Part shown: piece after piece, positions 4,590 to 52,906 of the stretch
Position numbering within the stretch: position 1 is the stretch's first letter
Layout of the letters: every line of letters starts with the position of its first letter
Assembly (NCBI GenBank): GCA_963713955.1
Contig: OY970216.1
Location: forward strand, 209,934 to 273,933
Reading direction: 5' to 3'
Source of the DNA: an uncultured bacterium
Lineage (GTDB): Bacteria; Patescibacteriota; Minisyncoccia; UBA6257; GWB1-50-10
Length of the DNA stretch: 64,000 nucleotides
The notes under the pieces: generated by a model
Database searches by the model: none
What the model was told of the DNA's origin: nothing
The model's input: the letters and a program-made list of their open reading frames with translations, nothing else
Made by a program: the position numbers and the translations under genes

Positions 4590-5090
4590 TTAGTATACAG
4601 AAAGAGTAATCTGCTTTGCAACAAAGCTGCCGGACGTCCTGATGTTTGAATCAGTGGTGATTACAACGACGTCGCCGCTCTTGAGGTCGGAAACGCTGAG
4701 GGAAGATTGAAGGGGCATTCCGGATTTATTCATTTTCGAATAATCCAATTTCACTATTTTCGTATTTTGATCGATAACTACCGTTTTCGCGACTTGCTTC
4801 TTGGGAGAGTTATCAAGGTGTGGAAGGTAGTCGCTTGGATCGTCCATCGAAATCGTAAGGTTGTTGCCCTGTATGCTTGTTATTTTGGTTCTCACTTGTG
4901 TAAGTACTGCCGGCGGCTCTGGAAAAGCCGCGTTTACTATCGGCTGGTATTTGGCTTCCGTCGCCGACGTGCCAGCCTGCTTGCCGTTCTCATTTCCGAT
5001 CCAGAATCCTATCAGAAATACGGCAACCGCTACCACGATACTCCCGACCGTTAAGATCGCTATTTTGTTTTTTGATTGTATTGGTTCCAT
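4590..5090 (-). CDS. Membrane-anchored hypothetical protein (one N-terminal TM helix, extracytoplasmic domain).
   Basis: 166 aa. Hydrophobic ILTVGSIVVAVAVFLIGFWIG near the N-terminus. No recognisable catalytic motif. Confidence 0.45.
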   Translation of the reverse strand: MEPIQSKNKIAILTVGSIVVAVAVFLIGFWIGNENGKQAGTSATEAKYQPIVNAAFPEPPAVLTQVRTKITSIQGNNLTISMDDPSDYLPHLDNSPKKQVAKTVVIDQNTKIVKLDYSKMNKSGMPLQSSLSVSDLKSGDVVVITTDSNIRTSGSFVAKQITLSVY

Positions 5091-6294: not shown

Positions 6295-7791
6295 ATGAAA
6301 AATTATCTGCCAATATTTTTGTTCGTCATCCTGATGTCAATCGCGTTCGCCTTTATCGCGCAAGCGATCAATGTTCCGCTTGATACCTCTTCAGCACCGC
6401 AGTCCAAGGCTGGTTCTCTACATTTTACTTCTTCCAGTATGGATTCCTATATCGGTGATCTCACAGGAGGTGATGTGTTGGGATTTGGCAATGGCGGTTC
6501 TTACGCGACTCTGAGACTCTCCAATGGAGTGTTTAGTGTTTTTTCACCTGCCCTGAATCAAAACTCTGAGGTGCCATTGTGGTTTGCCACGACAACCGGA
6601 ATTTATACGCCCCAAAACCTGTTTGTCACCACGAGTTCACTCGTTGGCAGCATCCCGGCGGATGCCAGTTCTTTAGAGATTTTGGGATTCACCCCGCTGC
6701 CTCCCGATAGTGGTAGCTACTGCGGTAACCAGTCGTACGGCGACAGATTGTTCGGCTGTTCTTCCACGACGCCGAACGTAGGTCTTTATGGTAGCTCATC
6801 GTGGGGTGAGGGAGCGATACTCTTTAATTTGTTTGCGAGTTCAACGGACGGATATGCAGCTAATTGGCCGGTGTCACCGGTAAATGGTAATCAGTCTTCG
6901 TTTGGGATCCTATTTGGTAATGCGTTGGGCAACGGTTTGTCGATAAACGCGTCGGCGCCATTAACCCAGGCTCAAAAAGATAATCAGAAAACTATCAGGG
7001 ATGTCTGGCGTGCAGGGCTTATGCTTGGTTTTGACGGAAGTGCTGTTTTAGGTGCACCTCCGTCCAGCGCAGAATATGCTTTTGAGATAATAACGAATAA
7101 AACCTGCGATGTCGGCAGCGGATGTACCGGGTTTGTAAAGATTGCCTCGAGTTCAGAAGACTTCTTCCGGTATGGTACTTCTGTGACTGCTGGCTATCCG
7201 GCGTACTTCGGCGCAAGAGAAAACTATGCCAGCGGAACGATCGGCTATTGTGATGACTGTACGACAAGCAATTTGAAACCGGAATATAGGTACAAGCGAA
7301 TAATGCAGCCAGCTGATACTACCGTTCGCGCACTCGACGTAGATTTGCTGAATCCATCGTGGAGTAACTGGTGGACCAGTTCGGCGGATCAGGATTGGTT
7401 AAATACTTTAAATCAGTTGGGACAAGGTATCACATGTGCGGGTACTAATAGCAAAGCGGTAAGTCAAAACGGGGCAGGCGGCATTATATTCTGGCCGACG
7501 GGGAGCGTCATTTGTAATTATGCGGGCGGTGGAGCATCGGCGCAGAGGATTTTTGAAACAAGTAATACGAGCTCTCATTACCTTGAGCCAGACTGGACTG
7601 ATTATAATCATATGACAACGAATTCAAGTCCAACATTTTTCACGAATACGTGGGCAACATGCCCACCAGGCTATTTTGTAAAAGGTATCAAGTATGGTAA
7701 ACGCACGTTGGCAACAAAGGGAGGAAGTCTCTTGGGAGAGAATTATTACGACGGTATAGTCCCATCAATAATGTGCGACAGATTGTGGTAG
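6295..7791 (+). CDS. Secreted paralog 2 (N-motif DTSSAPQSKAGSL, C-terminal CPPGYFVKG...C).
   Basis: 498 aa. Signal peptide MKNYLPIFLFVILMSIAFAFIAQA. Ser/Gly/Thr-rich, many Cys. Conserved motifs shared with flanking paralogs. Separated by 4 nt from paralog 1. Confidence 0.6.
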   Translation: MKNYLPIFLFVILMSIAFAFIAQAINVPLDTSSAPQSKAGSLHFTSSSMDSYIGDLTGGDVLGFGNGGSYATLRLSNGVFSVFSPALNQNSEVPLWFATTTGIYTPQNLFVTTSSLVGSIPADASSLEILGFTPLPPDSGSYCGNQSYGDRLFGCSSTTPNVGLYGSSSWGEGAILFNLFASSTDGYAANWPVSPVNGNQSSFGILFGNALGNGLSINASAPLTQAQKDNQKTIRDVWRAGLMLGFDGSAVLGAPPSSAEYAFEIITNKTCDVGSGCTGFVKIASSSEDFFRYGTSVTAGYPAYFGARENYASGTIGYCDDCTTSNLKPEYRYKRIMQPADTTVRALDVDLLNPSWSNWWTSSADQDWLNTLNQLGQGITCAGTNSKAVSQNGAGGIIFWPTGSVICNYAGGGASAQRIFETSNTSSHYLEPDWTDYNHMTTNSSPTFFTNTWATCPPGYFVKGIKYGKRTLATKGGSLLGENYYDGIVPSIMCDRLW

Positions 7792-32627: not shown

Positions 32628-33206
32628 ATGAAAGCATCAACCAAAAGGGCTCTCAGCATTCTCTTCTCGCTTTTCTTTCTCATAGCGACCATCGTCGTCT
32701 ACACGAGCCTCATACAACCGGAGATTGGCGCCGCGAGTCAGTTGCAATCCGTCGTCGCTTCCAAGACCAACGCTTACCAGAATCAGAAAAACGCGGTATC
32801 TCAGGTTTCAAAGCTTATTAGCCAGTTCCAGAATGCGGGTTCACTCGAAAACACTCTTTCACTCGCGATGCCGATAGGGCCGAGCGTAACACAAGCCCTG
32901 AACCAGTGGTACACGGTTTCACAGACGAGCCAAGCGAGCGTCCAGACACTCGACATAAAAGTCGGGAACGCTTTCATCCAATCCAGCCAGCCTCTGGCCA
33001 AAGGCATGGGGACCGTGACCGTCGATCTGGGACTCCTCGGGACGTACGATTCGTTGAAGCAATTTTTGACCTCGATTGAGTCGAACGCGAGAGTGATCAA
33101 CGTCGATTCCCTGGACCTGAGGCCGGTGCAGTCGCAAAGCACGGCGGGCGGCGGGTCGCTCTACTCGCTCGGCCTCACCGTTGATACGTATTATCAATCG
33201 AACTAA
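32628..33206 (+). CDS. pilO: PilO-like pilus assembly protein.
   Basis: 192 aa. N-terminal TM ALSILFSLFFLIATIVVY, coiled-coil then periplasmic domain. Synteny. Confidence 0.5.
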   Translation: MKASTKRALSILFSLFFLIATIVVYTSLIQPEIGAASQLQSVVASKTNAYQNQKNAVSQVSKLISQFQNAGSLENTLSLAMPIGPSVTQALNQWYTVSQTSQASVQTLDIKVGNAFIQSSQPLAKGMGTVTVDLGLLGTYDSLKQFLTSIESNARVINVDSLDLRPVQSQSTAGGGSLYSLGLTVDTYYQSN

Positions 33207-33338
33207 TCCCTCACCCTTCGAGAATCGCGTATAATAAGAACAAAGACTACTATGAATAAGTTAAAAAACACAAATTTGAGACCAATAAGTAAAATGCTTC
33301 TTCGTCGCGAAGCCGAATCAATTCTTGAAGGGTGAGGG

Positions 33339-33629
33339 ATGGCGATCATCGTTGAACAAGAGAAGAAGCCGGTGAATTGGGTGAACGTCGTGGCTATCGT
33401 GGTTTTCGTGGTCCTGGTTTTCGCCGTGGCCTATTTCGTGTTTTTCAACAAGCCGGAACTCATCGACGTCGTTTTGCCGGGCGGACTCAGGAACATCAAC
33501 ACGTTGTCGCAGGTTCAGGTGGATCCGTCGCCCGTGGTCACGACGCTCCAGAAGTATTTCACGACCAACTACAATTCACCGATCACGATTCCGACTCCCG
33601 GCCGCACCAACCCCTTCGCGCCATTCTAA
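33339..33629 (+). CDS. Small membrane protein (96 aa) between pilO and pilB. Possible PilP-like or accessory pilus component.
   Basis: TM helix VNVVAIVVFVVLVFAVAYFVFF. Flanked on both sides by the tccctcacccttcgag / cttcgaagggtgaggg inverted repeats. Confidence 0.4.
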   Translation: MAIIVEQEKKPVNWVNVVAIVVFVVLVFAVAYFVFFNKPELIDVVLPGGLRNINTLSQVQVDPSPVVTTLQKYFTTNYNSPITIPTPGRTNPFAPF

Positions 33630-33754
33630 TCCCTCACCCTTCGAGGATCGCTTTGAGTCATTTTGGGAAGTACATGAAATTGGAGATTGTCGTAAAAAAG
33701 CTGAGAGAGAAAACTCCGAAGCCGCGGAGTTTATTAATCTTCGAAGGGTGAGGG

Positions 33755-35485
33755 ATGACCGATCAAGAATTAGTCAAAAAACTGGTTGAAAAGAAGCTGA
33801 TTTCGGAGCAAATCGGCTCGAGGATTTTGCGCGACGCCGAACTTCGGGGGCAGTCGGCGGAAGAAATGATTTATCAAAGCCGACTGGCCGATGAAACAGC
33901 CGTCGCGAAGGTGAAAAGCGAGCTCCTTGGCGTACCATACAAGAAAGTAGACGTGGGTGCGGTGACGAGCGATCTCATCGCTTTCATTCCCAAGGAAACG
34001 TCGAAAACCTACCAGGTTATTCCGCTCGAGAAAAACGGCGATATGCTGGTCGTGGGAATGCTCCGGCCCGACAGTTTGCAGGCGCAGGAGGCTCTGAAAT
34101 TCATAGCCAAGCAGGAACGGCTGAGTCTCGGCGTTTACCTCGTGACTCCTTCGGACATGGCGGCGGTGTGGAGGAAGTATGCGCCGTACAAAACCGAAGT
34201 CGAGTCAGCCGTGGAGGAAATCGGGAACGTGAGACAGGCTGATTCCTTCGCGGTTTCGCTCGAAGAAGAAGGAGGAACCGGCGAGGACGCGCCGATCATA
34301 AAAATAGTCGCCTCGACGCTCCGGGAGGCAGTCGAAGAGAAAGCTTCGGACATTCACATAGAACCGCAGCGGCTCCGGCTTCGCGTACGGTTCCGGATCG
34401 ACGGCGACCTCAAGGAAGTCGCTTCCCTCCCTCTTTCCTTGAGCCAACCCGTCATTTCGCGCGTCAAGGTTTTGGCAAGATTGAAACTCGACGAGACGAG
34501 GATTCCCCAGGACGGAAGGTTCAGGACTTTGATTTCCGGGAGGGATATTGATTTCAGGGTGGCGACGTTCCCGACTCCTTCAGGCGAGAAAGTGGTTTTG
34601 CGCGTTCTCGATCCGACAACCGGTCTCAAGGGTCTCCCGGAACTGGGGCTTAGCGATTACAACTTCAAGATATTGGAAGAGGCGCTCGGGTCTCCGTACG
34701 GCATGGTTTTGATCACCGGACCCACGGGTTCCGGCAAGACGACCACGCTCTACGCGATCATGCAGAAAATCAATTCCGAAAAGGTGAATATCGTGACTCT
34801 CGAGGATCCCGTCGAGTACTTCATGGATGGGATCAACCAATCTCAGGTAAAACCCGAGATCGGCTATGATTTTTCTTCCGGCCTCCGGCAGATTTTGCGG
34901 CAGGATCCGGACATCATCATGGTCGGCGAGGTCAGGGATTCGGAGACCGCCAATTTGGCCGTGAATGCGGCCTTGACCGGACACCTTATGCTCTCGACTC
35001 TTCATACCAACAATTCCATCGGCGTCATTCCGCGGCTCATCGATCTCGGCGTGCCGGGATTTCTTCTTGCGTCTTCCCTGAATCTCATGCTCGCCCAACG
35101 TCTCGTGGGGAGGCTGTGTCCCGAGTGCAAGAAGGAGCGGCCGGTGTCCGCCGGTCTTGAGAAAGTGGTGGAGGAATCTCTCGCGAAGCTTCCCGAAAGC
35201 GTGCGTGCGGGCCTCAAGTACAAAAAGCCCTACTCCTCGTGGTATGTCGAGCCGAATCCGAGTTGCAACGTCTGCAACGGGAAGGGGACGGTGGGGAGGG
35301 TGGCGGCATTCGAAATCTTCAGGATGACGAGGGAATTGGTGGACATCGTAAGCCGAGGATTCACCGAGAACGCGCTCATCGACGAGGCAAAGCGGCAGGG
35401 CATGGTCTCGATGAGAGAAGACGGCGTCCTGAAAGCACTTCAGGGCGAAGTGATGCTGGAAGAAGTGGTGAGGGAAACGGAGTAA
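33755..35485 (+). CDS. pilB: Type IV pilus assembly ATPase PilB (GspE family).
   Basis: 576 aa. N-terminal GSPII-like domain. Walker A GPTGSGKTTTLYA. Asp box and His box (TLEDPVEY..., LRQDPDIIMVGEVRD, STLHTN). Tetracysteine CPECKK...CNVCNGKG. Confidence 0.9.
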   Translation: MTDQELVKKLVEKKLISEQIGSRILRDAELRGQSAEEMIYQSRLADETAVAKVKSELLGVPYKKVDVGAVTSDLIAFIPKETSKTYQVIPLEKNGDMLVVGMLRPDSLQAQEALKFIAKQERLSLGVYLVTPSDMAAVWRKYAPYKTEVESAVEEIGNVRQADSFAVSLEEEGGTGEDAPIIKIVASTLREAVEEKASDIHIEPQRLRLRVRFRIDGDLKEVASLPLSLSQPVISRVKVLARLKLDETRIPQDGRFRTLISGRDIDFRVATFPTPSGEKVVLRVLDPTTGLKGLPELGLSDYNFKILEEALGSPYGMVLITGPTGSGKTTTLYAIMQKINSEKVNIVTLEDPVEYFMDGINQSQVKPEIGYDFSSGLRQILRQDPDIIMVGEVRDSETANLAVNAALTGHLMLSTLHTNNSIGVIPRLIDLGVPGFLLASSLNLMLAQRLVGRLCPECKKERPVSAGLEKVVEESLAKLPESVRAGLKYKKPYSSWYVEPNPSCNVCNGKGTVGRVAAFEIFRMTRELVDIVSRGFTENALIDEAKRQGMVSMREDGVLKALQGEVMLEEVVRETE

Positions 35486-37902: not shown

Positions 37903-37984
37903 AGTAATCGCCAATGATGCGAATGACTGCAAATAACGCGAATATGATATAATAAGAACAAATGGTCGATGAATAAAAAAACAA

Positions 37985-42081: not shown

Positions 42082-42147
42082 ACTTTGTAATATGTTTTTT
42101 GGAATTCATTTCAAAACACCTCTCTGGGTGAAAAAATGCGTGAGGAT

Positions 42148-42228
42148 GCAGACTCAGGAGGGCAAAAAAGTGGGTAAGACTTGGCCTAGCGGCCCGGAGC
42201 GCACACCTTTTTGGCTTCCTGAGTCTGC
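42148..42228. repeat. Copy 1 of a structured palindromic intergenic element: 37-nt conserved core (42170-42206) flanked by A6/T5 runs and a 12-nt inverted repeat gcagactcagga / tcctgagtctgc.
   Basis: Core gtgggtaagacttggcctagcggcccggagcgcacac. Also present at 47461-47497 (+) and 45376-45412 (reverse complement). Confidence 0.6.
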
Positions 42229-42265
42229 AATTATTACCTTTAAAGAGAAGAAGTTACAGAAATAC

Positions 42266-43219: not shown

Positions 43220-45352
43220 ATGACGAAAAACGAAGCCCGGGAACGGATCGAAAAACTGAAGAAAGAAATAAACAAATACCGCTATGCGTATCACGTACTC
43301 GATCGGGAACTTATTTCTCCCGAGGCGCTGGACTCGCTGAAGAAAGAACTTTTCGATCTGGAGCACGAATTTCCGGAATTCGTGACGCCGGATTCCCCAA
43401 CGCAGCGCGTTGAGGGGAAGCCCTTGAAGGCGTTCAAGAAAGTGCCTCACGAGCGGCCCATGATTTCGTTCGACGATTCGTTCTCCGAGGGGGACATGCA
43501 AGCGTGGCTTTCCCGCTTGGAAAATTTTTTGGGGAGGGGAATAGCCGATGCTCACGAGGCGCTGGGAGAAAAACCGTACCGGAGGGGAGACAAAAAACCT
43601 CCTGTCTTTTATTGCGAACTCAAAATCGACGGACTGGCGATCGAGCTCGTGTACGAGCATGGCGTTCTGGTCCAGGGTTCGACGCGAGGAAACGGGCTCA
43701 TCGGCGAAGACGTGACACAGAATTTGAGAACCATCGAAGCCATTCCCTTGAATCTTTTGCCTTCCGAAGAAGCAGCCGAGAACTTGCGGAAGCTCGGCGT
43801 AAACCCTAAACCCTATACCCTAAACCCTCGGCGTCTCGTTGTTCGCGGCGAAGCGTTCATCGCGAGGAAAGAATTTGAGAGGATAAACAGAGAACGATTG
43901 AAGCGGCACGAAAAAGCATACGCGAATCCACGGAACATCGCCGCTGGATCGATACGGCAGCTTGATCCCAAAATCACGGCGTCGCGGAAACTGGATTCTT
44001 TCCAGTATGCGCTCTTCACCGACATCGGACAGAAATTCCATGAAGAGGAACATCTGCTCCTCAAAGCTTTCGGCTTCAAGACCAATCCCCACAACAAAGG
44101 TGTGAGTTCCCTGAAAGAAGCATTCGCATTCAGGGATTACTGGGTGGATCATCGGAACGAAATATCGTATGAAATCGACGGGACAGTGGTTCTCGTGAAC
44201 AGCAACAAGATTTTCAACGAGGCGGGGGTCGCAGGAAAAGCGCCGCGCGGCGCGATGGCCTATAAATTTTCCCCCCGGGAGGCGACCACCAGAGTTTTGG
44301 ATATCGTGGTTCAGGTCGGCCGTACCGGCGTTTTGACGCCCGTCGCCGTCATGGAGCCAGTCGGAGTCGGTGGCGTTACGATCACGCACGCGACGCTTCA
44401 CAATGAAGACGAGGTGGAGCGCCTTGACCTCCGGGTAGGCGACACGATTGTCGTTTCCCGCGCCGGAGACGTCATTCCGCAGGTGACGCAAGTTCTGAAA
44501 AATTTGCGGACCGGCCACGAGAGGAAGTTCAAAATGCCATCCGTTTGCCCGGTTGACGGCGGCCGCGTTGCAAAAATCGGCGCCCTCACAAAGTGTACGA
44601 ACCCCGACTGCGGCGCGAAACACAAGGAGTCGCTCTACCATTTCGTTTCCCGGACTGCCTTCGACATCCGCGGACTCGGACCGAAGATTCTGGACAAGTT
44701 CTTGGACGAAGGACTCATTTCCGATGCGGCCGACATCTTTGAGGTGAAAGAAGGGGACATCGAAGCCTTGCCGCGGTTCGGCGAAAAATCGGCCGAAAAC
44801 ATCGTCCGGGAGGTAAGTCAGAAGAGAAAAACGAGCTTGCCGAGGTTTTTGTACGCTCTCGGGATTCTTCATGTCGGCGAGGAAACGGCGGTCCTCTTGG
44901 CGCAAGCAATTTCAAGACCGAAATTCCGAATTTCGAAGCCAACCGATGTGGGCGAAGTTACGAAGTCCTTCTCGCTGGAGGAGCTTCAAGAATTGCCCGA
45001 TATCGGGCCGATCGTCGCGAAGAGTATTTACGACTGGTTCCGTACCGCGAAAAATGCGAGGTTCTTGGAGAGATTGGAAAAAGCGGGGGTGGAAATAGAG
45101 CGGATTAAATCGACAGACAAAAGCCAAAAGTTGAAAGGACGGACGTTCGTCTTGACCGGCACCCTGTCTTCAATGTCCCGCGACGAAGCGAAGGATAAGA
45201 TAAGGGAACTAGGCGGTGACGTTTCTGAAACCGTTTCGACAAAAACCACTTTTGTCGTCGTGGGAGAAAATCCGGGATCGAAGTACGACCGGGCAGAAAA
45301 ACTAGGTGTCCAAATCTTAGACGAAGAAGAGTTTAGAGAGCTTATTAGTTGA
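43220..45352 (+). CDS. ligA: NAD-dependent DNA ligase LigA.
   Basis: 710 aa. Adenylation motif KIDGLAIELVYEHG (KxDG). Zn-finger CPVDGGRV...C..C. HhH motifs and C-terminal BRCT (GRTFVLTGTLSSMSRDEAKDKIRELGGDVSETVS). Confidence 0.95.
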   Translation: MTKNEARERIEKLKKEINKYRYAYHVLDRELISPEALDSLKKELFDLEHEFPEFVTPDSPTQRVEGKPLKAFKKVPHERPMISFDDSFSEGDMQAWLSRLENFLGRGIADAHEALGEKPYRRGDKKPPVFYCELKIDGLAIELVYEHGVLVQGSTRGNGLIGEDVTQNLRTIEAIPLNLLPSEEAAENLRKLGVNPKPYTLNPRRLVVRGEAFIARKEFERINRERLKRHEKAYANPRNIAAGSIRQLDPKITASRKLDSFQYALFTDIGQKFHEEEHLLLKAFGFKTNPHNKGVSSLKEAFAFRDYWVDHRNEISYEIDGTVVLVNSNKIFNEAGVAGKAPRGAMAYKFSPREATTRVLDIVVQVGRTGVLTPVAVMEPVGVGGVTITHATLHNEDEVERLDLRVGDTIVVSRAGDVIPQVTQVLKNLRTGHERKFKMPSVCPVDGGRVAKIGALTKCTNPDCGAKHKESLYHFVSRTAFDIRGLGPKILDKFLDEGLISDAADIFEVKEGDIEALPRFGEKSAENIVREVSQKRKTSLPRFLYALGILHVGEETAVLLAQAISRPKFRISKPTDVGEVTKSFSLEELQELPDIGPIVAKSIYDWFRTAKNARFLERLEKAGVEIERIKSTDKSQKLKGRTFVLTGTLSSMSRDEAKDKIRELGGDVSETVSTKTTFVVVGENPGSKYDRAEKLGVQILDEEEFRELIS

Positions 45353-45356
45353 TAAA

Positions 45357-45431
45357 GAATCGGTGAATTAAAAAAGTGTGCGCTCCGGGCCGCTAGGCCA
45401 AGTCTTACCCACTTTTTTACCTCACCGATTC
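45357..45431. repeat. Copy 2 (reverse orientation) of the 37-nt-core palindromic element, flanked by the inverted repeat gaatcggtgaa / ctcaccgattc. Sits between convergent ligA and the PHP gene.
   Basis: gtgtgcgctccgggccgctaggccaagtcttacccac at 45376-45412 is the exact reverse complement of the core. A6 and T6 runs flank it. It would act as a bidirectional terminator-like structure. Confidence 0.6.
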
Positions 45432-45435
45432 TTCC

Positions 45436-46131
45436 TCAGCGAAACAAGTTCAGGGTGGTTTTGAGGAGTATCCTCATGACGTATTCGTCCGTGAGTCTCG
45501 CGGGCGGCGAGATGATTTTTATTTTTCCTTCCTTCACGGCTTTTGCGATGGACGGGAACGAACTGTCGTCGGCTTCCAGAATTGAGTAGCTTCCGTCGAG
45601 CCAATCGAGGTCGTGGGTATCGGACGTGGCGACGATCGGCAGGTTGTGTGTGAGAGCGAAATGACCCGCCTCTTTGTTGAGATTCAAGAACTTGAAGTGG
45701 AACCACGAGTACTCCACAGCGTCGAAAAGCTCCACGTGTTCCTTGAGCTTCCTGCCTAATGAAACTCCCCCGCCGAAGAACGGGTGGGGGGCGATAATGA
45801 GCACTTCCGGATGGGCTTCTTTGTATTTCTTCAAGTCGGAAAACGTTTCTACGTTTTCCGCCGATTTATCGACATTCAACATGATGACATCCTTTCCTTC
45901 CACGCTCTTTTCTATGCCTTGAATGAGGTTTATGCCGAGACTCTTCGCGTATTCGTGGTATTTTTCGTCGTCCGTCACGAAATTGTGGCACGTGACCGCG
46001 AGAGCATCGAAGCCGAGCTCCTTGGCCTTGCGAAGCCCCTCAAAGAGGCTGTGCTTCGCGACGAGTGCCGCTCGTTCCTTGTCTTCCACGTCGTCTTTCG
46101 TGTGAAAATGAAGATTTGTTTTAATTTTCAT
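45436..46131 (-). CDS. PHP-domain metal-dependent phosphoesterase.
   Basis: 231 aa. N-terminal NLHFHTKDD (HxH), AVTCHN, IIAPHPFF, ATSDTHDLD metal-ligand contexts typical of the PHP family. Confidence 0.7.
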   Translation of the reverse strand: MKIKTNLHFHTKDDVEDKERAALVAKHSLFEGLRKAKELGFDALAVTCHNFVTDDEKYHEYAKSLGINLIQGIEKSVEGKDVIMLNVDKSAENVETFSDLKKYKEAHPEVLIIAPHPFFGGGVSLGRKLKEHVELFDAVEYSWFHFKFLNLNKEAGHFALTHNLPIVATSDTHDLDWLDGSYSILEADDSSFPSIAKAVKEGKIKIISPPARLTDEYVMRILLKTTLNLFR

Positions 46132-47436: not shown

Positions 47437-47440
47437 GGAA

Positions 47441-47517
47441 GAGCTCGGCGAGGCGAAAACGTGGGTAAGACTTGGCCTAGCGGCCCGGAGCGCACACATT
47501 TTCGGCTTGCCGAGCTC
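47441..47517. repeat. Copy 3 of the 37-nt-core palindromic element, flanked by the inverted repeat gagctcggc / gccgagctc. Sits between convergent rplU and recR.
   Basis: Core at 47461-47497 is identical to copy 1. The outer stems differ from copies 1 and 2 but remain self-complementary. Confidence 0.6.
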
Positions 47518-47519
47518 TT

Positions 47520-48119
47520 TTACGTCCTCTTCTCGAATGAGTGGAGAAGGGTTGTCTCGTCGGCAAATTCTACCTCGCCTCCCGTGGGGAGTCCCCGGCC
47601 GAGCCGGGTTATTTTTTTTGCCAGATTCTTAAAATCCTCCCGTATGAGATCGGACGTAAAGTCGCCGATCGACGTGGCATTCAGGGCTACGATGATTTCC
47701 TCAGCCTTCCCGCCGAGCTCTTTTTTTATCCTCTCTTTCAGCTTTTCCAGACGGTCTTTTTGCTCTTGTCCCAAGATCCCCTTTTCGGCCAAGTTCCCGA
47801 GGATGAGGTAGTGTCCGTTGAACTTGCTTATTTTCTCGAACGTCAGGAGATCGGTTTCTCTTTCGACGACAGCCACGATGTGCGAGTCCCTCTCGGGGTC
47901 AGAGCAAATTCGGCACAATTTTTCGTTTCTCTCTTTTACGAAGAAACAGCGTTCGCAGACATCGAGTTTCGTGAGCCCTTCGAGGGCTGCAACCGTATTT
48001 TCGAGGTCCACCTTTTCCATCTGGAGAAAGAAAAAAGCCAGCCGCGTTGCCTGCCGCGGCCCCAAGATAGGCAGTTTTGAAAAACGGTCTATAAATCTTT
48101 TTATTTCCTCTGGTATCAT
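47520..48119 (-). CDS. recR: Recombination protein RecR. Start at MIPEEIKRF.
   Basis: HhH LPILGPRQATRLAFFFL. C4 zinc finger CERC...CRIC. Toprim domain (HIVAVVERETD, ILGNLAE), then the C-terminal region. Confidence 0.8.
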   Translation of the reverse strand: MIPEEIKRFIDRFSKLPILGPRQATRLAFFFLQMEKVDLENTVAALEGLTKLDVCERCFFVKERNEKLCRICSDPERDSHIVAVVERETDLLTFEKISKFNGHYLILGNLAEKGILGQEQKDRLEKLKERIKKELGGKAEEIIVALNATSIGDFTSDLIREDFKNLAKKITRLGRGLPTGGEVEFADETTLLHSFEKRT

Positions 48120-51931: not shown

Positions 51932-52906
51932 TCATTTCGAGAAATCGAGGATAATATTGTCGACGCGGGGGGTCGAGTTCTGAAGGGAGTTCGTCTGGAG
52001 CATGAGCTCGTACCTGAAATAGCGGTAGTTGCTGAAATAAGTCGGGTTTACGCAAATCGGCGTACCTGGCGCGGGACAGGATGACAGCGTTCCTCCCGTG
52101 AGACTCTGGCTGCACGGCGCGCCGTACCAATTGCTTCCCGTGCCCGAGGGACCGATGTAATTCCAGGAGCTGCTTGTGCTATTCGAAGCCGCGATCTGGA
52201 ATCCCAATGCGGTCCCGGCAAGGCCACACGATCCTTGCCACACGATGCTCTGGAGAGTTGCTGGCCCGCCTGCGTCTATCGTGTACGATGTGAGATAACC
52301 CACGGTACTCGTTGATCTCCAACTGGTATTCACGAGATACGGCGCTGCCGAGCAATTGCCGCCGCCCGGATTCGAGCAGTTGAAACTAATCCATCCCGCG
52401 AGATCGTTCCACGCCCAGCCGTTGAAGTTGCCATTCGAGTCTATCGAGACGTCGTAGCTCACCGAACCGGGGCAGACGGCCGAATTTTGCCCGCCGCAGA
52501 AACTAATCCATCCCACGAGATCGTTCCACGCGAAACCGCTCAAAGCTCCCGTCGCGTCCGCGCCGCTGCAGGAACCGTCGGCGTTGTGCGTCGCGTTCGT
52601 GCCGTTGCAGATGCCGTAGTTTGAGGTGCCGCACAGGTTTCCGTTTCTGGTTGTGAAGCAATCGAGAGAGAGGTCGCCCACGGAAGAACTGGCATAGCCG
52701 CTTATTTTGGTGCCTGCGACAAGGACGGCTTGAGTCCCGTAAAAATCCCAAAAGCCGTCAAGCGGGTCGTAAGCCGACGAGCTGGTCGGTGAAGATGCTA
52801 TGTTGGTGCTTGCAGCAGCCGACGGGGCGCCGGAGAGTATCAAAAACAGGGTCATCGCGACGACAATCGCGACGAGTATCCAGAAAACGATCTTGACCGG
52901 TTTCAT
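51932..52906 (-). CDS. Secreted Cys-rich protein with GFAWNDLVGWISF / GWAWNDLAGWISFN repeats. Same repeat family as in the 9145 protein.
   Basis: 324 aa. Signal/TM IVFWILVAIVVAMTLFLILSG. Ser/Thr-rich linker. Two copies of G[FW]AWNDL[VA]GWISF followed by Cys clusters. Confidence 0.5.
   Translation of the reverse strand: MKPVKIVFWILVAIVVAMTLFLILSGAPSAAASTNIASSPTSSSAYDPLDGFWDFYGTQAVLVAGTKISGYASSSVGDLSLDCFTTRNGNLCGTSNYGICNGTNATHNADGSCSGADATGALSGFAWNDLVGWISFCGGQNSAVCPGSVSYDVSIDSNGNFNGWAWNDLAGWISFNCSNPGGGNCSAAPYLVNTSWRSTSTVGYLTSYTIDAGGPATLQSIVWQGSCGLAGTALGFQIAASNSTSSSWNYIGPSGTGSNWYGAPCSQSLTGGTLSSCPAPGTPICVNPTYFSNYRYFRYELMLQTNSLQNSTPRVDNIILDFSK

Follow-up and report, generated by a model that had tools for sequence, protein, structure and literature searches.

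Inverted-repeat elements at two cistron junctions of a Patescibacteria pilus operon and their probable origin as repeated insertions

Hairpins that mask the ribosome-binding site (RBS) are known for the free-standing GIY-YIG nuclease genes of phages. Among bacterial repeats, MITEs (miniature inverted-repeat transposable elements) of the Correia and ERIC type can alter the expression of neighbouring genes (PMC10969869), and a 2024 review of MITEs does not mention endonucleases at all (PMC10969869). Here, we analyzed a stretch of 64,000 nucleotides of contig OY970216.1 from an uncultured bacterium of the Patescibacteriota (the window), in which two inverted-repeat elements, E1 and E2, separate pilO, the small gene orf96 and pilB of a type IV pilus operon (PilM, PilN-like, PilO-like, orf96, PilB (T2SSE), PilT, PilC and pilins). 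Our analysis indicates that E1 and E2 are probably copies, without an open reading frame (ORF), of a palindrome-ended repeated insertion element that resides at cistron junctions in bacteria of the candidate phyla radiation (CPR/Patescibacteria).

Elements E1 and E2 in the pilus operon

E1 occupies the entire gap between pilO and orf96, and E2 the entire gap between orf96 and pilB. The original prediction had reported inverted-repeat pairs flanking both spacers, with arms that extend to about 18-20 bp with few mismatches and a right arm that includes the Shine-Dalgarno (SD) sequence and the start of the following gene; all of this was confirmed. The repeat finder gave 20-nt arms at 33206-33225/33321-33340 and 33629-33648/33737-33756, 95% complementary, with one G.U in each pair and an arm spacing of 95 nt in E1 and 88 nt in E2, and both right arms contain an SD-like GGGTGA together with the AT of the ATG. 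The features are as follows (window coordinates, strand, description):

33206-33340, + strand: element E1, 135 nt including the terminal AT..AT
33206-33225, + strand: E1 left arm ATCCCTCACCCTTCGAGAAT, which starts with the final A of the pilO TAA
33231-33236, + strand: TATAAT box in E1, a putative promoter element
33252-33335, + strand: 27-codon open frame in E1 (MNKLKNTNLRPISKMLLRREAESILEG, then stop), which stops at the arm TGA, 3 nt upstream of the orf96 ATG
33296-33313, + strand: E1 3' subterminal hairpin GCTTCTTCGTCGCGAAGC, the conserved 3' module of the E1 subfamily
33321-33340, + strand: E1 right arm ATTCTTGAAGGGTGAGGGAT, with the SD-like motif GGGTGA at 33330-33335, a TGA at 33333-33335 and the AT of the orf96 ATG (33339)
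33339-33629, + strand: orf96, a conserved 96-aa membrane-anchored pilus-operon protein between E1 and E2, with 31 homologues
33629-33756, + strand: element E2, 128 nt
33629-33648, + strand: E2 left arm ATCCCTCACCCTTCGAGGAT, which starts with the final A of the orf96 TAA
33674-33751, + strand: 25-codon open frame in E2 (MKLEIVVKKLREKTPKPRSLLIFEG, then stop), which stops at the arm TGA
33711-33732, + strand: E2 3' subterminal hairpin AAACTCCGAAGCCGCGGAGTTT, -9.6 kcal/mol, 3-4 nt upstream of the right arm
33737-33756, + strand: E2 right arm ATCTTCGAAGGGTGAGGGAT, which holds GGGTGA (33746-33751), a TGA (33749-33751) and the AT of the pilB ATG (33755)

The two interiors, which had been called unrelated, show no mutual BLAST similarity, but they do have in common a short 5' GATCGC and the 3' hairpin module. 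A 15-mer of E1 (TATAATAAGAACAAA, 33230-33244), which contains the TATAAT, is identical to positions 37948-37962 upstream of the first pilin gene, and the extended alignment scores 56, compared to 27.8 +/- 4.6 (maximum 49) for shuffled sequences. The window was also searched for the arm 16-mer with up to 3 mismatches, using 100 shuffles as the control: there are 5 matches per 64 kb versus 0.64 expected, and 0/100 shuffles reach 5. Four of these five matches are the arms of E1 and E2; the fifth, at 6798, has 3 mismatches, lies within an ORF and looks like a chance match. Rfam 15 gave no gathering-level match in the window, and only a chance-level miRNA match at E<=10 in 33100-33900.

RNA structure prediction, one of the checks suggested along with the original prediction, yielded stable stems. 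E1 folds at -45.2 kcal/mol (z -4.3) and E2 at -57.2 kcal/mol (z -4.9), the stems by themselves contribute -35.0 and -36.8 kcal/mol, respectively, and both hairpins are kept in the minimum free energy structure and in the centroid of the 651-nt context. Enclosed in these thermodynamically favoured stems are the SD-like GGGTGA and the AUG with which the following gene starts. No intrinsic terminator is formed by the right arms, which run into ATGGCG and ATGACC with no T run, and a terminator scan flagged only the small inner hairpin of E2, weakly.

Orthologous operons of relatives were retrieved via the orf96 homologues. In the same species from two other samples, the region 33151-33800 is identical. 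In relatives with orf96 identities of 81, 81, 74, 73 and 68%, the pilO-orf96 gap is 4, 3, 8, 1 and 5 nt long, respectively; the orf96-pilB gap is 12 and 3 nt in two relatives (L245 and L247), and three further relatives have unrelated 82-122-nt inserts at this junction. Because orthologous junctions in relatives are only a few nucleotides long, E1 and E2 are lineage-specific insertions, and the comparison of sequences demonstrates that both were gained in the lineage of the window. The empty junctions of relatives have no SD and gaps of 1-8 nt, a layout typical of termination-reinitiation coupling.

The inserts at the E2-equivalent junction (L241 3292-3376, L243 3292-3413 and L251 2416-2497) are not uniform: those of L241 and L243 have ...TTACGCGAGCAGAGCGAGCATATT... 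in common, and the L251 insert is different again. The orf96-pilB junction appears to be a recurrent insertion hot spot. At the pilN-pilO junction, two relatives (L243 2298-2422, L247 2277-2404) carry a related element with other arms, ATCCCGCTTTAGAGAAT / ATTCTCTAAAGGCGCGGAAT and ATCCCGTTAGAGGCA / TGCCTCTAACGGGAT, with ATGAA on both sides. These orthologous sister copies differ in the inner arm, on both sides, and their arms are similar to the ones that flank a GIY-YIG gene of an Omnitrophota genome (L263). Since inserts are found at several junctions among the relatives, the pilus operon of this clade has been hit repeatedly.

The same comparison bears on the idea that E1 and E2 are integron-like attC boundaries, with orf96 as a cassette between two recombination sites. 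E1 and E2 do resemble such sites, in that they are imperfect palindromes (125-135 nt) in which the ends are conserved and the centre varies, located directly after ORFs, and the arms around orf96 are in inverted orientation. However, orf96 keeps its place in all relatives, both those with and those without the elements, the arms (ATCCCTCACCC...GGGTGAGGGAT) lack the attC core GTTRRRY/RYYYAAC, and copies are scattered through core operons with no array. We give this explanation almost no credence.

The element family at cistron junctions

The arm motif was scanned in one genome per species. Most of the hits are single matches in unrelated phyla, as expected by chance. AT-rich pairs, that is, a + copy followed by a - copy 124-167 nt downstream, were found only in metagenome-assembled genomes (MAGs) of Patescibacteria/CPR (Saccharibacteria, Jorgensenbacteria, Minisyncoccia and other Patescibacteria), and two GC-rich pairs were found in proteobacterial MAGs. 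A metagenome scan demanding both arms yielded at least 120 loci. Among the matches listed, family arms ATCCCTCACCCTTCRRRRAT flank AT-rich spacers of 120-170 nt at over 70 non-redundant gene junctions; removal of GC-rich relatives and duplicates left 76 AT-rich copies, and the stem and interior analyses were based on the 63 unique copies. An ATG directly adjoins one arm in 64/76 copies, and a stop codon directly abuts the other arm in 51/64 (TAAT/CCCTC in 45), in the form stop/TCCC..GGGA/TG with no duplication past a possible A/AT. The usual layout is thus stop, left arm, interior, right arm, ATG.

The junctions are diverse. Genes downstream of copies encode rpL2, rpS19, rpL18, rpS11, rpL22, rpS2, MreB, NusB, RecR and HPF, and, as identified by eye, PilB, PilC, the valyl-tRNA synthetase ValRS and UvrC; the arms recur in ribosomal-protein operons of distant CPR classes. 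Copies in L149 and L212, which lie at unrelated junctions, match E1 over its entire length with 73% identity. At least five copies are present on one 636-kb contig, and three copies reside at one Saccharibacteria locus, where two of them, at different junctions, are near-identical through the interior; E1 and E2 represent two copies per 64 kb of their own genome, counted in the window only. Carriage of the family by phages was considered and rejected, as the one match to a viral contig is from a GC-rich non-CPR family.

The GC-rich non-CPR repeat families (L121-L240; e.g., L137 1910-2034, L147 1432-1581, L124 3673-3803 and L138 2713-2843) are an observation in their own right. They have the outer 12 nt (CCCTCACCCTTC...GAAGGGTGAGGG) and the size of 125-150 nt in common with the CPR family, and contain nested CCCTCTCCCC/GGGGAGAGGG hairpins and terminator-like flanks (aaaaggc...gcctttt), not stop and ATG codons.

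This distribution bears on the function that had been proposed for the stems. A dedicated translational attenuator of orf96 and pilB, evolved for pilus regulation, would agree with stems that cover the SD-like motif and AUG of both genes and with hairpins that are thermodynamically favoured in context, but the elements are absent from the orthologous operons of relatives with 68-81% orf96 identity, identical arms precede ribosomal-protein genes, mreB, nusB and recR in distant CPR classes, and the whole of E1 recurs at non-pilus junctions. The attenuator is thus largely refuted by the distribution, and we consider it very unlikely. Of the RBS-occluding stem, the structure stands (a stable 20-bp stem pairs the sequence after the stop with GGGTGA and AUG), whereas the dedicated pilus function is not supported; control of pilB or segmentation of the pilus mRNA lacks support as a dedicated role, given the same arms at dozens of unrelated CPR junctions and their absence from the operons of relatives. 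A generic terminator had been named as the outcome that would overturn the prediction. The motif is indeed widespread at gene ends, but it always comes with a downstream start codon and has no U-tract, which is not compatible with a terminator. The evidence favours the alternative that had been offered, in which a MITE-like element with conserved termini inserted twice.

The stem is exactly 20 bp long (AT-CCCTCACCCTTC-RRRRAT), and pairing ends abruptly beyond it. It should be noted that 12 of the stem positions were fixed beforehand by the scan pattern. The outer 14 bp are conserved in sequence, and covariation is seen in the inner 4-6 bp: where the four inner positions that vary depart from the consensus, the pair is kept in 32/35 cases, mostly by changes on both sides. 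The evidence for inner pairing consists of these counts of compensated departures; the shuffled-partner control was uninformative, AAAGAT being common to most copies. As judged from these substitutions, complementarity of the arms is clearly maintained.

The interiors are AT-rich, purine-rich on the sense strand, variable and of fixed polarity. In 49/63 copies (p ~1e-5), the 3' half holds the longest hairpin of the interior, and this hairpin lies 0-4 nt from the right arm in 39/63; in the E1 subfamily it is the conserved GCTTC..GTCGCGAAGC module, of which E2 has a compensated version. Exact TATAAT occurs 17 times on the sense strand versus 4 times on the antisense strand. Fixed polarity is relevant to another possibility, namely that E1 and E2 are invertons, the arms of which are recombinase sites, so that the interior of about 90 nt (with the TATAAT in E1) would flip and cause phase variation of the pilus. 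The arrangement of inverted repeats around a promoter-like box beside pilus genes would be suitable for this purpose, and inversion has been reported for Correia elements (PMC10969869). However, two independent assemblies from other samples are 100% identical over 650 nt with orientation unchanged, the polarity of the interior relative to the downstream gene is the same in 49/63 copies, and no recombinase was identified. Segments of 88-95 bp are very short for recombinase-mediated inversion. Inversion is, accordingly, an extremely improbable account of these elements.

A further candidate function is that the frames of 25-27 codons in E1 and E2 are small-protein genes. In both elements the frame starts with an ATG at element position 44-45 and stops at the same arm TGA, and similar frames are present in L033, L036 and L078. 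However, most Saccharibacteria copies have no such frame, conservation of the peptides is lacking, and Pfam gave no match. As it is not conserved across the family, the 27-codon frame of E1 is probably not a gene, and we regard functional small proteins as highly improbable.

Two observations concern the interiors of other copies. At the junction upstream of S11 in Saccharibacteria (L094 2220-2380, L107 6090-6230 and L239 488-633), the arms are identical and the interiors are different, each interior resembling other copies of its own genome, which suggests replacement within the genome or gene conversion. In L080 1970-2136, L015 1940-2091 and L094 2220-2380, there is a nested mini-hairpin of arm-like sequence, e.g., CCCCTCACCCTTTAAAATTAAAGGGTGAGGGG, which looks as if one element had inserted into a second copy or recombined with it.

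GIY-YIG nuclease cassettes with the same arms

Arms of the E1/E2 type also bracket a protein-coding gene. The copy in L071 is 292 nt long and contains, between its arms, an 88-aa ORF with a match to PF01541 (8.8e-16), and L135 is a second arm-bracketed GIY-YIG copy; overall, GIY-YIG genes are bracketed by such arms at five distinct loci, in operons that are type IV secretion system (T4SS)-like, encode asparagine synthase/glycosyltransferase, or contain pilT-pilC. The left arm of E1 matches the arm of the L253 cassette at 17/20 positions. With the L071 protein as the query, 99 homologues were obtained, which are 84-88 aa long and come from Wolfebacteria, Colwellbacteria and Paceibacterota. The protein ends in ..LEG in 27/99 of these and in ..QG in about 13, encoded by CTT GAA/CAA GGG TGA, which is the right arm; in the full-length cassette, the nuclease ORF stops at the arm TGA, 3 nt upstream of the next ATG. 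All further loci that we examined have the layout TAA, left arm (21-24 nt), ATG...GIY-YIG...right arm, GGG, ATG, co-directional within an operon, and inner-arm differences between cassettes occur on both sides together. At the level of sequence, the association of the arms with a GIY-YIG nuclease is thus demonstrated.

Three non-CPR homologues (annotated as Omnitrophota and Nitrospirae, and one other) have the same layout with different arms of 15-16 nt: the C-rich left arm abuts the upstream stop, and the G-rich right arm holds the nuclease stop and the next start. A fourth such GIY-YIG case is at a 65%-GC locus. In L263, the final 14 nt of the upstream gene (AAGGTGCGGGATGA, 1454-1467) recur exactly at the right end of the cassette (1760-1773); thus, the downstream gene keeps an identical upstream context. 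The left junction and left arm of L263 form a near-perfect palindrome. The 14-nt repeat may represent a long duplication of the target, or else hint at how insertion takes place.

Deletion derivation of the ORF-less copies from GIY-YIG cassettes was tried and rejected: nhmmer with a profile of the five cassettes found no interior homology in the 63 copies on either strand. A likeness between the C-terminal peptides KDRFKRSVIFEG and KSRLYNSLMLEG was set aside as anecdotal.

Mechanism, significance and comparison with known systems

The comparisons above establish insertion, family membership, architecture and the association with the nuclease. In the mechanism that we propose, the GIY-YIG cassette would be the autonomous or founding form, and E1 and E2 would be MITE/REPIN-like passengers. 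The termini would be adapted to operons: the left arm begins at the upstream stop codon, and the right arm would supply the SD-like GGGTGA and the A of the ATG. This GGGTGA, 6 nt ahead of the ATG in the GGAGG-equivalent register, would pair with 3'-UCCACU-5' if the 3' end of the host 16S rRNA is canonical (the spacing and the pairing were calculated from established SD rules, with a canonical 3' end assumed). On the polycistronic mRNA, the arms would form a stem of about -35 kcal/mol that masks the SD and the AUG, and an insertion of about 130 nt would break translational coupling unless the element itself restores it. As the stop codon is where the left arm starts, a ribosome that terminates there would have to open the outer base pairs, and these would be the same pairs that hold the AUG and the SD. 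Alternatively, ribosomes on the 27- and 25-codon frames, running to the arm TGA, would enter the stem. Expression of orf96 and pilB has to persist in any case, and these two routes are the likeliest: by either of them the outer stem would be opened, and translation would stay coupled; transcripts derived from the TATAAT of E1 would have no left arm. The mRNA stem may couple translation, repress it or be processed, and any effect of E1 and E2 on pilus expression would be a by-product or a secondary exaptation rather than the reason for the sequence.

E1 and E2 have several properties of MITEs: they are 135 and 128 nt long, with 20-bp arms and only short, non-conserved frames inside, and the family has many non-homologous sites as well as empty orthologous sites. 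Strict membership fails on target duplication and is doubtful with respect to a transposase-encoding parent, the gene bracketed by the same arms being of the GIY-YIG type. Our literature searches turned up neither a report of GIY-YIG cassettes that have terminal inverted repeats nor one of an intercistronic repeat in CPR bacteria, subscription journals being poorly covered; a family of elements with exact placement between stop and start and with a GIY-YIG partner appears to be undescribed.

Several findings weigh against parts of this interpretation. (i) A systematic test for target-site duplication gave 3/64 copies versus 1.3 in the control, that is, no consistent duplication; a 5-nt ATGRA duplication is present in a minority (L135, L140, L149, L196, L243, L247 and L263), and E1 and E2 have no ATGRA target duplication. 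(ii) There is no GIY-YIG ORF in the 64-kb window or in E1 and E2, and the ORF-less interiors have no detectable homology to the GIY-YIG gene; the GIY-YIG link is therefore one of arms and placement only. (iii) The GIY-YIG protein is a bare catalytic domain of 88 aa without a DNA-binding module, and GIY-YIG is not known as a transposase, which is unfavourable to nuclease-driven mobility. (iv) Imperfections of the stem are balanced, with 13 G.U versus 12 A.C, and there is thus no sign that the sense RNA rather than the DNA is the selected structure. (v) Exact TATAAT is found in only 13/63 interiors, and short frames ending at the arm TGA are missing from most Saccharibacteria copies, so that the routes for opening the stem are not universal.

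The balance of G.U and A.C also bears on processing of the mRNA. RNase III, or another RNase, may cut the 20-bp stems and separate pilMNO, orf96 and the mRNA from pilB onward, upon which the half-stems would melt and the SD would be unmasked; such cleavage is compatible with a mobile origin, as in the Correia elements, the terminal inverted repeats of which are cut by RNase III in Neisseria transcripts (PMC10969869). The near-perfect duplex of 20 bp belongs to the length class that RNase III accepts, and the length is sharply conserved. However, copies reside within ribosomal-protein operons, where segmentation of the mRNA has no obvious benefit, and a strand-specific G.U signature is lacking. 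On this analysis, cleavage by RNase III is a serious and non-exclusive alternative, possible although on the whole unlikely.

Beyond the reading of E1 and E2 as copies of a repeated insertion element, we tentatively put forward a wider interpretation, in which our confidence is low. The elements may belong to an undescribed, operon-resident selfish class that extends across several phyla and consists of a bare GIY-YIG gene, or an ORF-less shell, within C-rich/G-rich inverted arms that fit exactly between stop and start and would contribute an SD and a start-codon base of their own; the hairpin would set the stop beside the start, so that ribosomes cross about 130-290 inserted nucleotides, and both forms would be mobilised by the nuclease through recognition of the hairpin or cruciform. 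If this is true, insertion would be nearly neutral, even in ribosomal-protein operons.

Two further observations were made in the window. First, most of its genes have no SD and instead have TATAAT 7-24 nt upstream of the ATG (e.g., upstream of 4590-5090, 26873, 30856, 32048, 41039 and 51932-52906), which suggests leaderless mRNAs or mRNAs with very short leaders, and a minority have a GGAGG-type SD; the strong SD-like motif carried by the element is unusual in such an SD-poor genome. Second, an unrelated palindromic repeat is present in three copies (42147-42229, 45352-45436 and 47440-47520), with a conserved core of about 40 nt (GTGGGTAAGACTTGGCCTAGCGGCCCGGAGCGCACAC) within A/T runs and outer stems that differ between copies and stay complementary. 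These copies are located directly after stop codons, between tandem or convergent genes, and have no Rfam match; the repeat may act as a terminator in both directions, its loop being conserved, may be a small RNA, or may represent a further mobile hairpin.

The significance of the family lies in several directions. In the tiny, streamlined genomes of CPR/Patescibacteria, the element has colonised the most conserved operons without destroying them. If the arms preserve translational coupling, they represent a natural solution for placing DNA between cistrons while avoiding polar effects. Gene calling in CPR MAGs would be affected as well: at such junctions, the element would be the source of start codons, of SD statistics and of what appear to be intergenic regulators. 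The link to a minimal GIY-YIG protein, repeated in other phyla with different arms, suggests a partnership of the REP/RAYT kind on a different nuclease fold, which would give widespread small stand-alone GIY-YIG proteins a testable function. For the pilus operon of the window, the sequence points to no special riboswitch-like control; it would carry two passengers, of which E1 may add an internal promoter.

Among known systems, the E1/E2 family resembles the operon-transcribed Correia elements of Neisseria and ERIC (also known as IRU) of enterobacteria, which likewise are multi-copy, measure 100-200 bp, have terminal inverted repeats that form a long hairpin in mRNA, vary in presence between relatives and sometimes provide promoters. 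Correia and ERIC have TA target duplications, an ancestry of the insertion sequence (IS) type and an associated ORF of the transposase type, whereas the E1/E2 family has no consistent duplication and its associated ORF is a GIY-YIG nuclease; unlike them, it is placed exactly between stop and ATG, its right end gives the SD and the A of the start codon, and its orientation in the operon is fixed. Repetitive extragenic palindromic sequences (REP/REPIN) with their RAYT are similar in being dispersed extragenic palindromic repeats, in which pairing is conserved more than the inner sequence, and in having a single-domain, nuclease-type gene flanked by repeats. RAYT is an HUH/Y1 enzyme, in contrast to the GIY-YIG (PF01541) enzyme of the E1/E2 family; moreover, the arms of E1 and E2 are not themselves palindromes, the apparent copies number units to tens, not hundreds, and they are strictly intercistronic. 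No RAYT was seen in the loci examined, and the enzyme thus excludes assignment to REPINs.

REP2 of Neisseria and the inverted repeats of Borrelia resemble the family as repeats that bear a promoter, RBS or ATG; unlike it, REP2 has no terminal inverted repeats, no abutting upstream stop and no associated nuclease gene. The free-standing GIY-YIG genes of phages (T4 seg/mob type) resemble the cassettes in that a small, co-oriented ORF that depends on the host operon is wedged between conserved genes. The enzymes of phages possess DNA-binding domains and lack terminal inverted repeats, whereas the cassettes consist of a bare catalytic domain of 85-88 aa with 20-bp arms, and, unlike in phages, ORF-less derivatives outnumber the GIY-YIG cassettes. 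Finally, in the coat-replicase coupling of MS2, as proposed for E1 and E2, the SD and AUG of the downstream gene pair with a segment located upstream, which is opened by ribosomes translating or terminating on the upstream cistron; the coupling suggested here differs in that the masking segment and the masked RBS would arrive together on an inserted element.

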